Of a stretch of 16,743 nt of DNA, positions 2,652-16,743 are shown piece after piece (the stretch's first letter is position 1; each line of letters begins with the position of its first letter). Source of the stretch: a virus; UHGV virus genome UHGV-0045952. One strand, written 5' to 3'. The notes under the pieces were generated by a model. That model saw only the letters and a program-made list of their open reading frames with translations, made no database searches and was not told the origin of the DNA. The position numbers were made by a program, and so were the translations under genes.

Positions 2652-2849
2652 CTAAATAATTAAATCATATTCTGATTTGGTTAGTTTATACGCACCTCCT
2701 CTGGTGTAATATGCAAATCTGTCTTTGCTTCCATCAGAATTGTATACCCACCCACCAAATGGAAAGATAGTGTCTATTTCTCCAATATCTTTTTCACAAC
2801 TAAATGTTTTTCCGTTTTTAGTTGAATATGACTTTCCAACTGTCAACAT
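2652..2849 (-). CDS. Hypothetical small protein in an AT-rich moron-like segment
   Basis: 65-aa ORF with a GAGG Shine-Dalgarno 5 nt before the ATG; locally AT-rich; bounded by a perfect 9-bp inverted repeat (2610..2637) and the terminator at 2521..2547. Confidence 0.45.
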   Translation of the reverse strand: MLTVGKSYSTKNGKTFSCEKDIGEIDTIFPFGGWVYNSDGSKDRFAYYTRGGAYKLTKSEYDLII

Positions 2850-2888
2850 CTTCGCCTCTGTTGTTTATGCCAAAAATAAAGGCCACCA

Positions 2889-3089
2889 TCAGGCAGCCTT
2901 GTTGTTCTGTTTACCAAGTTCTCTGGCAATCATTGCCGTCGTTCGTATTGCCCATTTATCGACATATTTCCCATCTTCCATTACAGGAAACATTTCTTCA
3001 GGCTTAACCATGCATTCCGATTGCAGCTTGCATCCATTGCATCGCTTGAATTGTCCACACCATTGATTCTTATCAATAGTCGTAGTCAT
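2889..3089 (-). CDS. Small four-cysteine (zinc-ribbon-like) protein
   Basis: 66-aa ORF with cysteines at positions 11, 17, 20 and 26 (CGQFKRCNGCKLQSEC); AGGA upstream of the ATG. Confidence 0.45.
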   Translation of the reverse strand: MTTTIDKNQWCGQFKRCNGCKLQSECMVKPEEMFPVMEDGKYVDKWAIRTTAMIARELGKQNNKAA

Positions 3090-3159
3090 ACGGATAATCC
3101 TGGTATTGTTCCATCACATCCTGAGGATGCTCTTCGAACTCTTCAAATTCTTCTTCCAT
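3073..3159 (-). CDS. Very acidic 28-aa peptide
   Basis: ATG at 3159 preceded by GAGGTGA; translation MEEEFEEFEEHPQDVMEQYQDYPYDYDY; overlaps the start of the Cys4 ORF by 17 nt. Below the ORF-track length cutoff. Confidence 0.35.
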   Translation of the reverse strand: MEEEFEEFEEHPQDVMEQYQDYPYDYDY

Positions 3160-3217
3160 ATCTCACCTCAAATAAGTGGTTTGCTGCCTAATTTCATTTT
3201 CTGGCGACCAACACAAG

Positions 3218-3490
3218 TCATCTTGCTGTCAGTTGTTTTGATTTCCGGTAGCCTGCTGCGTAAAGAGCTACGTTCGGAAGACAAGTTGAACCTTCATATT
3301 TTCTGGTCAACGTTGTCAGAGTTATCACTTCTGCTCTCATTGCTGGTTTGCGCTTGCATTGCAAGACCACTCGTGAAGGGGTTGGCCTGTGTAGCTTGTC
3401 GGAGCTGATCGCCTCCTGACTTTGCAGATTTGCACGACGAGCTCTACGGCGAGAAGCTGCGGTTCCTTTAAATTCTGTTTTTCTGGACAT
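3218..3490 (-). CDS. N-like transcription antiterminator (phage 21-type arginine-rich motif)
   Basis: Track ORF 3218..3562 trimmed to the ATG at 3490, which has a GGAGGA Shine-Dalgarno 6 nt upstream. N-terminus MSRKTEFKGTAASRRRARRANL resembles the phage 21 N arginine-rich motif as I recall it. Candidate nutL and PL lie just upstream. Confidence 0.6.
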   Translation of the reverse strand: MSRKTEFKGTAASRRRARRANLQSQEAISSDKLHRPTPSRVVLQCKRKPAMRAEVITLTTLTRKYEGSTCLPNVALYAAGYRKSKQLTAR

Positions 3491-3607
3491 AGATTCCTCC
3501 CGAATAAACTTTGGCGATGCAATCTCGAAGCCCCTCCTGAGACGGTTGCTTCGGCATTGCATCCCACAGCTTATGTGGTTGGGTGATCTGGCTTTTCAGC
3601 CACGTAG

Positions 3608-3635
3608 TCGAGTGTTCGACGTTGTTTAAAGAGCC
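3608..3635 (-). promoter_or_regulatory. Candidate nutL (boxA-like plus boxB-like hairpin)
   Basis: On the minus strand: GGCTCTTTA, spacer AACAAC, then hairpin GTCGA-ACAC-TCGAC. Same architecture as the candidate nutR (CGCTCTTTG, TAACAAC, hairpin); about 120 nt upstream of the N-like start. Confidence 0.45.
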
Positions 3636-3681
3636 TGCCAGTCTGTTCCGTTTGGCTTCCAGCTTCCTGCTGATGGCGATA

Positions 3682-3710
3682 ATAATGAACTAATAGTTCG
3701 AAATTATCAA
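3682..3710 (-). promoter_or_regulatory. Candidate PL promoter with operator-like repeats nearby
   Basis: Minus strand -35 TTGATA (plus 3705..3710), 17-nt spacer, -10 CATTAT (plus 3682..3687). Flanked by three copies of a TACGAAAT / TTCGAAAT motif (about 3696..3758) that recurs in the cI-cro intergenic region. Confidence 0.35.
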
Positions 3711-3907
3711 GAACTATTGGTACGAAATTTTGTGATTTATTAACTCTACGAAATATGATTTTGATATATAAGGAAATTTATTTTTGTAAAGGTTGAAGAC
3801 TGGTCAGTTGTGGAGAAAGAATGATTTTGCTGGCGTGTTGGTTTGCGGTTTACCACATGTGCGGTTGTTAAGTCTGTGAGGCAAAGAAAACCCGGCGCTG
3901 AGGCCGG

Positions 3908-3997
3908 NNNNNNNNNNNNNNNNNNNNNNNNNNNNNNNNNNNNNNNNNNNNNNNNNNNNNNNNNNNNNNNNNNNNNNNNNNNNNNNNNNNNNNNNNN
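3908..3997. other. Assembly gap (90 N)
   Basis: Run of N; followed by low-complexity sequence aaaaaaacccccgggcgggggggcgggg (3998..4025) that looks like read-end artefact. Confidence 0.95.
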
Positions 3998-4032
3998 AAA
4001 AAAACCCCCGGGCGGGGGGGCGGGGATGAGGA

Positions 4033-5031
4033 TTATGTTATCTCTTTGACATAAAGTATTATCGCGGACTTTATTTCACCATCTAGTTCTTTTGCGTTGA
4101 TTGACAAATGAACTGGTTTTCTATCCCACTCAGCTTGCTGAAGAGCTTTTTTATGCTCGGATGCGTCGAGAAAAACATCTTGTACTATGCACGATATTCT
4201 TAGATCGGAGTCAACATTTCTCACTTGCACTTTGAAGCTCTCTGGATCAGTGGAGTCAACCTTTTCAATGCGATAATTTCCATCAAGGCGGATCTCCATT
4301 GATTTCCGCCTTGCATTTGTAGTGAGGGTTTTGGATAGATCTGCATCCAATACAACGCCATCAATCTGAGCTGTATCAGCCTTGACAAATGATTTAACTA
4401 TGTCGGTTTTTGCGTCATGAGCAAGTCTTTCCATGTTGTCTAGCTTGGGTTTTTCGCTAATAATCTGAGTCAATAATTCACTTCGTTTTGTTTCCTGCTC
4501 AGACATGAAGCGCATGGTCGCAAGGTGTTCACGCTCAGACTCGCTTTTTACTTCTGCCATGCGAATCTCTTTGCGGTCTTCTAGATATTTTTTGAATAGG
4601 ACGACGCCGCCCCATATAAGAGCGACCCCTAAAACTGTAATAACGATCTCTTGAGGGCCCACTTTACTCACCGCAGTTTGTATAACCTCACCCATGAACC
4701 CATCCATATTAACTTCTATCAAGGACGAGCCATTCTCAACATTCACCTGAATTTCGATAGCTTCCTTCTCTTCTTTTGAAAGCTTTCTTGGGTCAGGAAC
4801 TCCGTACTTTAACAATGCATAAGCTCGGTTTATTTGGGCCTGCATTTCAACAAAACCCTTCATGACAGAAGGAGTCAAACTGCCATGAAATTTGTCACCA
4901 GTAAGACGGAAGGTTAAGTTAGGCCACCCTTCAAATGATATTCCATCAGGAAGATCTTGCCCAGCGATGTACATCTCAACAAAACGCAAAGCATCTTCTT
5001 CGGAATGAATAACCGCCGTGCTGATTTCCAA
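4033..5031 (-). CDS. Unknown 332-aa single-pass membrane protein in the rexA-equivalent position (candidate exclusion / abortive-infection gene)
   Basis: Long ORF on the cI strand, directly downstream of cI with a 121-bp spacer. Apparent TTG start at 5031 with a GAGG Shine-Dalgarno 7 nt upstream. One hydrophobic segment at residues about 128-146 (IVITVLGVALIWGGVVLF) followed by a charged, helix-like stretch. No kinase or nuclease motif seen by eye. Confidence 0.55.
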   Translation of the reverse strand: MEISTAVIHSEEDALRFVEMYIAGQDLPDGISFEGWPNLTFRLTGDKFHGSLTPSVMKGFVEMQAQINRAYALLKYGVPDPRKLSKEEKEAIEIQVNVENGSSLIEVNMDGFMGEVIQTAVSKVGPQEIVITVLGVALIWGGVVLFKKYLEDRKEIRMAEVKSESEREHLATMRFMSEQETKRSELLTQIISEKPKLDNMERLAHDAKTDIVKSFVKADTAQIDGVVLDADLSKTLTTNARRKSMEIRLDGNYRIEKVDSTDPESFKVQVRNVDSDLRISCIVQDVFLDASEHKKALQQAEWDRKPVHLSINAKELDGEIKSAIILYVKEIT

Positions 5032-14947: not shown

Positions 14948-15163
14948 ATGAAATCAATGGACAAAATCTCAACTGGCATTGCCTACGGCACCTCAGCAGG
15001 TAGTGCCGGGTACTGGTTTTTACAGTGGCTTGATCAGGTCAGTCCGTCACAGTGGGCTGCGATTGGTGTACTGGGGAGTCTGGTTCTGGGCTTCCTGACT
15101 TATCTGACAAATCTGTACTTCAAAATCAGAGAAGACAAGCGTAAGGCTGCACGGGGAGAGTAA
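14948..15163 (+). CDS. S: S21-type pinholin with dual-start motif
   Basis: 71 aa beginning MKSMDK (starts at Met1 and Met4); sequence ...[24 protein letters not shown]... matches the phage 21 holin as I recall it; GGAGG upstream. Confidence 0.85.
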
Positions 15164-15167
15164 TTCA

Positions 15168-15518
15168 ATGACTCAAAACTATGAACTGATTGTGAAAGGG
15201 ATCCGCAATTTTGAGAATAAAGTTACGGTAACTTTAGCGTTACGGGACAAAAAACGCTTTGACGGCGAAATTTTTGACCTGGACATCTCGCTGGACCGTG
15301 TTGAAGGTGCCGCGCTGGAGTTTTATGAGGCAGCAGCCAGAAGGAGCATCAGACAGGTCTTCCTGGATGTTGCTGCCGGGTTATGTGAAGGGGATGAGCA
15401 GTCGCCGGAAAAGCGCCCCGTAATTTTAGAGGCGCAGAATGTGTGGATAACCTACAAAGGAAAGCTACCAGGAATAATTACTGGTTCTCTGAAGACTCCT
15501 CCGGAATCACAACATTAA
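15168..15518 (+). CDS. Hypothetical protein between holin and endolysin (possibly YdfR/DUF1327-like)
   Basis: 116 aa; ATG 5 nt after the holin stop with GGGGAGAG upstream. The YdfR/DUF1327 suggestion is an uncertain recollection that a gene of unknown function sits between holin and lysozyme in the E. coli Qin prophage. Confidence 0.45.
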   Translation: MTQNYELIVKGIRNFENKVTVTLALRDKKRFDGEIFDLDISLDRVEGAALEFYEAAARRSIRQVFLDVAAGLCEGDEQSPEKRPVILEAQNVWITYKGKLPGIITGSLKTPPESQH

Positions 15519-15553
15519 GTCACTGACCGGAACAGATAAACCTGTCCGTGGGC

Positions 15554-15563
15554 NNNNNNNNNN
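15554..15563. other. Assembly gap (10 N)
   Basis: Run of N between two diverged copies of the same roughly 85-bp segment. Confidence 0.95.
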
Positions 15564-15651
15564 ATTTTAGAGGCGCAGGATGTGTTGATAACCTACAGAG
15601 GAAAACTACCGGGAATAATTACGGGTTCTCTGAAGAGTCCGCCGAAATGGT
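15564..15651 (+). repeat. Diverged partial duplicate of the 3' end of the 15168..15518 gene
   Basis: 15564..15648 aligns with 15423..15507 at roughly 90 percent identity; in frame it would encode ILEAQDVLITYRGKLPGIITGSLKSPPKW versus ILEAQNVWITYKGKLPGIITGSLKTPPESQH; several differences are synonymous. Confidence 0.6.
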
Positions 15652-15891
15652 AATTTTACCAGCATATTTTTCATCCAGTAATACAGCAAGCCGCCTGAAA
15701 GAGTCTTGTTGTTCCTGAGACCATTTGGGATTGCATGATTCAAACTGGATTGATGCCAGCGTTGATTGCATCTGTTCCCTTGGAATTGAGAATGCCAGAT
15801 ATGAGAAGGCGACGGTAAGGGTATTCACGTCTTCCCGAAGCCTGGAAATGCTGTCGAGCAACTCCTGTAGAGAAATGGTGTTATTGTCCAT
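15619..15891 (-). CDS. Hypothetical protein, 90 aa, convergent with the upstream gene
   Basis: ATG at 15891 with GAGGA 6 nt upstream; 3' end overlaps the duplicated segment in antisense. No family recognised. Confidence 0.4.
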   Translation of the reverse strand: MDNNTISLQELLDSISRLREDVNTLTVAFSYLAFSIPREQMQSTLASIQFESCNPKWSQEQQDSFRRLAVLLDEKYAGKITISADSSENP

Positions 15892-15996
15892 AAATAATCC
15901 TCATGATTGTATTGACCTGTTAGCAGCCTGAGGCAACAGGCTGGAACTGATAAACATATCCAGGGCTCAGAAACCGATAAATCCTGATAAATATCC

Positions 15997-16530
15997 ATGA
16001 ACGCAAAAATCAGATACGGCCTGTCGGCTGCCGTTCTGGCACTGATTGCCGTCGGTGCGCCCGCGCCTGATATTCTCGACCAGTTTCTGGATGAAAAAGA
16101 AGGTAACCACACAACGGCATACCGCGATGGTTCCGGCATCTGGACCATCTGTCGGGGTGCCACGATGGTGGATGGAAAACCCGTTTTTCCCGGTATGAAA
16201 CTGTCGAAGGAAAAATGCGACCAGGTTAACGCTATTGAACGTGATAAGGCGCTGGCATGGGTGGAGCGCAATATTAAAGTACCACTGACCGAACCACAGA
16301 AAGCGGGTATAGCGTCATTCTGTCCCTATAACATTGGCCCCGGTAAGTGTTTCCCGTCGACGTTTTATAAGCGGCTGAATGCCGGTGATCGTAAGGGCGC
16401 ATGCGAGGCGATTCGCTGGTGGATTAAGGATGGTGGGCGCGATTGCCGCATACGTTCAAATAACTGCTATGGACAGGTTATTCGTCGTGACCAGGAAAGC
16501 GCATTAGCCTGTTGGGGGATAGATCAGTGA
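15997..16530 (+). CDS. R: SAR endolysin (R21-type lysozyme)
   Basis: 177 aa; N-terminal weakly hydrophobic signal-anchor-release segment [16 protein letters not shown]; lysozyme catalytic region [20 protein letters not shown] with the E...D...T spacing. Confidence 0.85.
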
Positions 16531-16743
16531 GCAGAGTCGCCGCGATTATTTATGCTCTGGTTATCTGCATCATCGTCTGTCTGTCATGGGCTGTTAATCA
16601 TTACCGTGATAACGCCATTACCTATAAAGAACAGCGCGATAAAGCCACGTACATCATCGCTGACATGCAGAAGCGTCAACGTGACGTAGCAGAACTCGAT
16701 GCCAGATATACAAAGGAGCTTGCTGATGCTAACGCGACTATCG
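16527..16743 (+). CDS. Rz: Rz-like i-spanin, 3' end beyond window
   Basis: GTG at 16527 overlapping the endolysin stop; translation [39 protein letters not shown]... parallels lambda Rz as I recall it; runs to the window edge. Confidence 0.75.

Follow-up and report, generated by a model that had tools for sequence, protein, structure and literature searches.

In the canonical phage 21 lysis cassette, S21-R21-Rz/Rz1, the genes for the holin and the endolysin lie directly next to each other. In the viral genome UHGV-0045952, of which we analysed a stretch of 16,743 nucleotides (hereafter the window), a holin gene of this type and the lysozyme gene downstream of it are held apart by about 830 bp, and the locus therefore raises the question of what this interval contains and whether a prophage with such a layout exists. 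The initial annotation, made from the letters alone, described one contiguous insert carrying two convergent genes that lacked any recognisable motif and were placed to modulate lysis timing or to act on the envelope. The window is the late region of a lambdoid E. coli prophage, and the interval is best read as a probable assembly chimera of two natural, mutually exclusive spacer alleles (termed here type A and type B) that lie between holin and endolysin in such prophages. The features that the argument needs are as follows.

3908-3997: run of 90 N, the second N run of the window
11362-11928: second HNH endonuclease gene, between ninF and ninG
13348-13866: Q antiterminator gene
14061-14573: HNH-AP2 endonuclease gene, between Q and the holin
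14948-15163, plus strand: S21-type class II holin of 71 aa with an M1/M4 dual-start motif (PF04971, E=1.4e-35)
15168-15518, plus strand: YdfR/DUF1327 gene, the 116-aa type B allele (PF07041, E=7.4e-43; phrog_406)
15423-15507: left copy of an 85-nt direct repeat, in the 3′ coding end of the type B ydfR
15554-15563: scaffold gap of 10 N, preceded by the last type-B-specific base (...GTGGGC)
15564-15968: type A branch, made up of a 3′ fragment of the 114-aa ydfR allele, the convergent 90-aa gene and its upstream region
15619-15891, minus strand: conserved hypothetical gene of 90 aa, WP_000369850.1 (phrog_2411, E=1.1e-58, positions 1-90 of 90)
15997-16530, plus strand: lysozyme of 177 aa (PF00959, E=1.4e-24)
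16527-16743, plus strand: Rz-type spanin gene, annotated as ‘lysis protein’ at the equivalent position of E. coli MS 196-1

The genes on either side of the interval are those named by the initial annotation, a phage-21-type holin and a lysozyme, and both assignments are upheld by the two Pfam matches above. The holin begins with MKSMDK, in which M1 and M4 make up the dual-start motif; it belongs to the Phage_holin_2_1 family, also matches phrog holin families, and is annotated in MS 196-1 as ‘class II holin family protein’. The lysozyme is 100% identical to that of MS 196-1, and its N-terminus is SAR-like, rich in Ala, Gly and Leu and weakly hydrophobic, with a Kyte-Doolittle maximum over 19 residues of 1.87 at residue 9. 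The start of the spanin ORF (16527) overlaps the lysozyme stop, and the gene is cut by the end of the window. The cassette resembles that of phage 21 in its dual-start holin family, in its spanin and in a lysozyme whose N-terminus may be SAR-like, and differs from it in that ydfR separates holin and lysozyme, as it does in most E. coli prophage copies.

Natural forms of the spacer were defined from 5,426 complete E. coli genomes together with phage records. Genuine spacers come in two lengths: that of type B measures 418 nt and carries a single gene, and that of type A measures 692 nt and carries a convergent pair. The type B order is holin, YdfR of 116 aa, 63 nt and lysozyme, and it is found in phage vB_EcoS-689R5 and in MS 196-1. 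The type A order, exemplified by E. coli strains 1290 and EC958, is holin, YdfR of 114 aa, the convergent 90-aa gene with a 35-nt overlap, 105 nt and lysozyme; this form is present in 1,117 complete E. coli genomes, about one fifth. The 90-aa gene is wholly missing from type B, in which the 3′ untranslated stretch seems to have arisen from type A by deletion.

The window contains material from both. Upstream of the 10-N gap, positions 14401-15553 align with the complete genome of MS 196-1 with 0 mismatches over 1153 nt, and downstream of the type A branch positions 15969-16743 do the same over 775 nt. In MS 196-1 the equivalents of 15553 and 15969 are directly adjacent, GTGGGC being followed at once by AGAAACC, so that its prophage is the same as that of the window but without the 405 nt from 15564 to 15968; type B spacers, that of vB_EcoS-689R5 included, have the same DNA on both sides of the gap as the window has. 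These 405 nt in turn match the type A spacer with 100% identity in more than 500 complete genomes (e.g. EC958 and JJ1886); this spacer is found in ST131 and other E. coli (in EC958 as EC958_RS07440 / RS26895, encoding WP_000193278.1 and WP_000369850.1) and is the genuine home of the 90-aa gene. That spacer differs from the window in its YdfR of 114 aa, in having no duplicated ydfR tail and in being followed by another lysozyme allele, which departs from the window lysozyme from 16041 onward.

The right copy of the 85-nt repeat lies at 15564-15648 and is 89% identical to the left copy, the pair bracketing the 10-N run, and the frame of the type A ydfR fragment closes with a TAA at 15651-15653. 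In a three-way alignment the window follows type B on the left of the Ns up to the last allele-specific base and takes up type A on the right, within the 3′ end of ydfR; the left breakpoint coincides with that last B-specific base to the nucleotide, and the window returns to shared sequence precisely at the common AGAAACC. Alleles A and B are flanked by identical anchors, no shorter than 58 nt (left) and 72 nt (right), a configuration from which bubbles arise in assembly graphs. The tandem of B followed by A was absent from all best-ranked matches among the 5,426 complete E. coli genomes, the record span in these matches being always the query length minus 141 nt, and the type A branch joined to the lysozyme allele of the window was found in no complete genome, the best full-length match being 93.3%. 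Since none of these matches carries both alleles in tandem, the window most probably consists of two branches of an assembly bubble strung together. The source genome probably has both alleles, in two prophages with identical flanks, and the scaffolder would have set branch A behind branch B with 10 N in between. The contiguous 830-bp insert of the initial annotation thus gives way before the gap, the repeat and flanks that are contiguous in MS 196-1.

The other N run of the window behaves in a similar way. In the complete MS 196-1 genome nothing separates the sequences on either side of the 90-N gap, and this gap is therefore a scaffolding artefact too, located at a GC-rich hairpin; on its right the sequence begins as a homopolymer-ridden echo of the left side. 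The stretch 3908-4021 as a whole reads as the 90 N followed by homopolymer-rich junk (AAAAAAACCCCCGGGCGGGGGGGC).

An alternative is that the tandem is real, illegitimate recombination between cassettes having joined the type B ydfR to a type A 3′ fragment and the 90-aa gene, with a 141-nt tandem duplication and with the 10 N standing for a few unresolved bases. Lysis cassettes do rearrange, for which IMG/VR contig L043 may be compared, yet we consider a real tandem very unlikely here: a recombination event would have had to break exactly at the last B-specific base and at the common AGAAACC, both sides are 100% identical to a single contiguous prophage of a complete genome, the form is missing from the best-ranked matches among the 5,426 complete genomes, and the other gap of the same window is demonstrably spurious. 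In contig L043 (IMGVR_UViG_651053022_000004, 2740-4285) the holin is followed by the 116-aa YdfR, a start-less truncated lysozyme and a partial Rz fused to the type A ydfR 3′ end, after which come the 90-aa gene and a second lysozyme, all of it free of Ns; this lysis region may be a true rearrangement in tandem or else chimeric in its assembly.

Returning to the assembly chimera as the reading we prefer, the main value of the locus is a caution. Where a run of N in mosaic prophage DNA is bracketed by an imperfect repeat, this is a sign that two alleles have been concatenated, and a gene order that spans the run is unreliable. That the layout is chimeric, that the first ORF is YdfR and that the second is a real gene are three statements that we hold jointly with high confidence. 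Both genes are already known as annotated features, ‘YdfR family protein’ and ‘hypothetical protein’, of no assigned function.

The first ORF starts 5 nt past the holin stop behind a GGAG-type Shine-Dalgarno sequence and is translationally coupled to the holin, so the tight coupling that the initial annotation had described stands. Its further statement that neither ORF has a recognisable motif fails for the 116-aa ORF, which is matched by the DUF1327 model with 145.1 bits against a gathering cut-off of 25 (model positions 1-92 of 93). The DNA of 15168-15518 is 100% identical to the MS 196-1 gene annotated as ‘YdfR family protein’. Compared with YdfR of E. coli K-12 (P76160), 60 of the first 74 residues are identical (81%, E=2e-46), and past residue 74 the C-terminus is not alignable. 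YdfR is an acidic, soluble protein with no transmembrane or signal segment. In structure prediction, which the initial annotation had suggested for both proteins, AlphaFold2 (AF2) modelled the N-terminal domain of YdfR with a pLDDT of 64-85, as a predicted beta-beta-beta-alpha fold, and the model of the 90-aa protein found no fold match.

A gene at this position is no departure from the usual order. The K-12 Qin prophage has the order essQ-ydfR-rrrQ-rzpQ, likewise with an S21-type holin, ydfR 4-5 nt past the holin stop, a lysozyme and a spanin. The differences are that K-12 YdfR is 103 aa long with a different, helical C-terminus that lacks the ITGSLKTPP tail, that the ydfR stop overlaps the rrrQ start, and that there is no convergent 90-aa gene. 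A probe that runs from the 3′ half of ydfR into the beginning of the type A branch, with the 90-aa ORF, matches 3,089 of the 5,426 complete E. coli genomes. Given the Qin layout and these matches, a gene between an S21-type holin and the lysozyme is a common state of E. coli prophages, and ydfR ranks among the commonest uncharacterised genes of their lysis cassettes. A literature search for DUF1327 yielded incidental mention only, and one for ybl58 yielded nothing.

The C-terminus of YdfR is modular, with forms of 103, 114, 116, 176 and 183 aa. The two longest (P0083, 176 aa; P0087, 183 aa) are common variants in which an extension of about 65 aa follows the ...GSLKTPP tail. This extension opens with a coiled-coil stretch that resembles the N-termini of the short partner proteins described below, a likeness that suggests module shuffling at this point.

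Purifying selection acts on the second ORF, which is a real gene. In comparisons with orthologues 58-84% identical to it, changes at third codon positions are about twice as frequent as those at first or second positions (e.g. 20/20/49), and dN/dS is 0.1-0.37. The initial annotation was right in placing on the opposite strand a convergent ORF with a Shine-Dalgarno sequence of its own, namely GAGGA 7 nt upstream of the ATG. The gene is an annotated CDS in two of the loci that we compared (L001 and L012), and distant family members (P0186 and P0220) also match phrog_2411. The family is small and confined to Enterobacterales. It falls into 119 clusters at 90% identity, and an exhaustive profile search yielded only 20 at 50%. 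From Escherichia to Citrobacter, Yersinia and Serratia, its members have kept the length of the ORF and its start. The convergent overlap with ydfR is exactly 35 nt in 79 of 82 further loci, and E. albertii prophages have the same convergent arrangement of ydfR and the 90-aa gene.

The encoded protein is acidic (pI 4.5) and soluble, with no transmembrane or signal segment and no match in Pfam, NCBIfam or PADLOC. AF2 predicts four helices (pLDDT 68), and a Foldseek search of the PDB with this model gave no match at E<1. A scan for consensus promoters and terminators found no site for the gene. A candidate read by hand nearby, TTGCCT and TACAAT separated by 19 nt, is poorly spaced, and a transcript from it would have hardly any leader; conservation among the aligned upstream regions of the 90-aa genes is only patchy.

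Outside E. coli, phage-borne copies of the 90-aa gene keep a convergent partner that shares only the last 25-35 residues of YdfR, with the tail consensus ...I-x-G-x-L-x-x-P in the alignment. In Citrobacter the partner is a 238-aa protein without DUF1327, and the pair lies upstream of a lambda-type holin and a CHAP endolysin; further partners are short coiled-coil proteins of 61-85 aa. In one IMG/VR phage locus (L096) the pair sits among tail genes, and in Yersinia it sits between tail genes I and J. In all phage copies the partner is co-oriented with the late operon, and the 90-aa gene points the opposite way. We also considered whether the whole 90-aa family goes with a tail-motif partner, and this was refuted by stand-alone chromosomal homologues in Serratia (L097, 3001-3285), in Sodalis (L099) and at one E. 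coli locus (L101). The Serratia homologue is flanked by dinI and bssS on the same strand and faces no convergent gene with the tail motif. The pairing is thus a trait of the phage copies and not of the whole family.

From this arrangement we propose, as a speculation that we ourselves regard as rather doubtful, that the 90-aa protein and the I-x-G-x-L-x-x-P tail form an undescribed portable module of Enterobacterales phages, in which the 90-aa protein would bind or antagonise the tail and so gate a late protein. Probably the 90-aa protein belongs to lysogeny or to the early phase of infection, before late transcription sets in, and convergent late transcription would then shut its gene off; the protein may act on, or together with, the tail of its partner. 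Were this so, the module could be grafted onto various N-terminal domains (DUF1327, coiled coils, the 238-aa protein) and inserted between holin and endolysin, upstream of a holin or between tail genes, and the late protein gated in E. coli would be an RNase E- and RNA-binding factor. The convergent 90-aa partner module is a minor and unexplored lead, and the one worth recording.

What YdfR itself may do is indicated by a 2026 study of the K-12 protein, which binds the N-terminal catalytic half of RNase E in two-hybrid and co-purification experiments, through a surface within residues 1-72, and co-purifies with RNA / DNase-resistant nucleic acid (PMC13232886). According to the same study, overexpression of K-12 ydfR caused no growth defect and few transcript changes, the gene shares its transcript with the lysis genes, and the authors cite a genetic screen as having tied it to envelope integrity (PMC13232886). 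Binding of RNase E was shown for the tail-less K-12 protein only; from the 81% identity over the mapped region (residues 1-72), we infer that the YdfR of the window would bind RNase E and RNA as well. It would be made late, with the lysis proteins, and like its K-12 orthologue would contact RNase E and RNA. Because K-12 YdfR binds both, the role that we hold most likely is the adjustment of host or phage RNA decay late in infection, rather than of lysis timing. Such a contact suggests a possible late-phase link of lysis operons to RNA decay. Taken together, these functional proposals for ydfR and the 90-aa gene are tentative, and we hold them with low confidence.

Other readings of the two genes have to be set against these. 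That the 90-aa ORF is no gene at all, but a frame open by chance on the antisense strand, or DNA that only templates a regulatory antisense RNA directed at the 3′ end of ydfR, would agree with its lack of a Pfam family, of a predicted promoter and of a predicted terminator, and with an AF2 confidence that is only moderate; the third-position excess of about 2:1, the low dN/dS among orthologues reaching down to 58% identity, the conserved length and start, and 119 clusters of which some stand alone with no antisense partner make it very unlikely. The proposal of the initial annotation, which regards both genes as cargo with an effect on the timing of lysis or on the cell envelope, takes its appeal from the location inside the lysis cassette and the translational coupling to the holin, and could further draw on the co-transcription and the cited envelope-integrity screen for K-12 ydfR (PMC13232886). 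We nevertheless find it unsupported and judge it unlikely. Both proteins are soluble and acidic and neither has a transmembrane or signal segment, and ydfR overexpression is without a growth defect (PMC13232886). Type B and K-12 cassettes, moreover, are wholly without the 90-aa gene, which is found, with a partner bearing the tail motif, upstream of another holin as well and between tail genes, sites that include non-lysis ones, and whose homologues are found in non-phage loci as well.

Some of the same mobility could instead be taken to mean that the convergent pair is a prophage-carried moron, defensive or toxin-antitoxin-like, that benefits the lysogen. The pair is a portable two-gene unit that occupies several moron sites of late operons, one of its genes is oriented against late transcription like many morons expressed in lysogens, and in Citrobacter it adjoins HicAB. 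The partner, however, is oriented and coupled as a late gene and forms no operon with the 90-aa gene, no toxicity is reported for K-12 YdfR (PMC13232886), and PADLOC has no match for either protein or for the partners; searches of PADLOC, Pfam and NCBIfam gave no defence or toxin/antitoxin match for the 90-aa protein, YdfR or the Citrobacter partner. On balance a moron of this kind is improbable, and the RNA-decay role for YdfR, with a possible tail-directed role for the 90-aa protein, remains our preferred reading.

Further observations concern the surroundings of the cassette. Both HNH endonuclease genes of the prophage are likely homing-type insertions. Between the HNH-AP2 gene and the holin, on the plus strand at 14772-14830, lies a tRNA-like 3′ half with a GGTTCGATTCCGG T-arm. 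It has a weak, sub-threshold Rfam match to tmRNA (E=0.016), ARAGORN called no tRNA in it, and it is not homologous to the tRNA-Met/Thr/Gly array that phage vB_EcoS-689R5 carries at the same site. Between the start of the 90-aa gene and that of the lysozyme, finally, a perfect GC-rich inverted repeat of 7 bp is found at 15925-15944 (CAGCCTGAGGCAACAGGCTG). It could be an operator or an RNA hairpin, and its outer CCTGTT...AACAGG pairing is kept in E. albertii.
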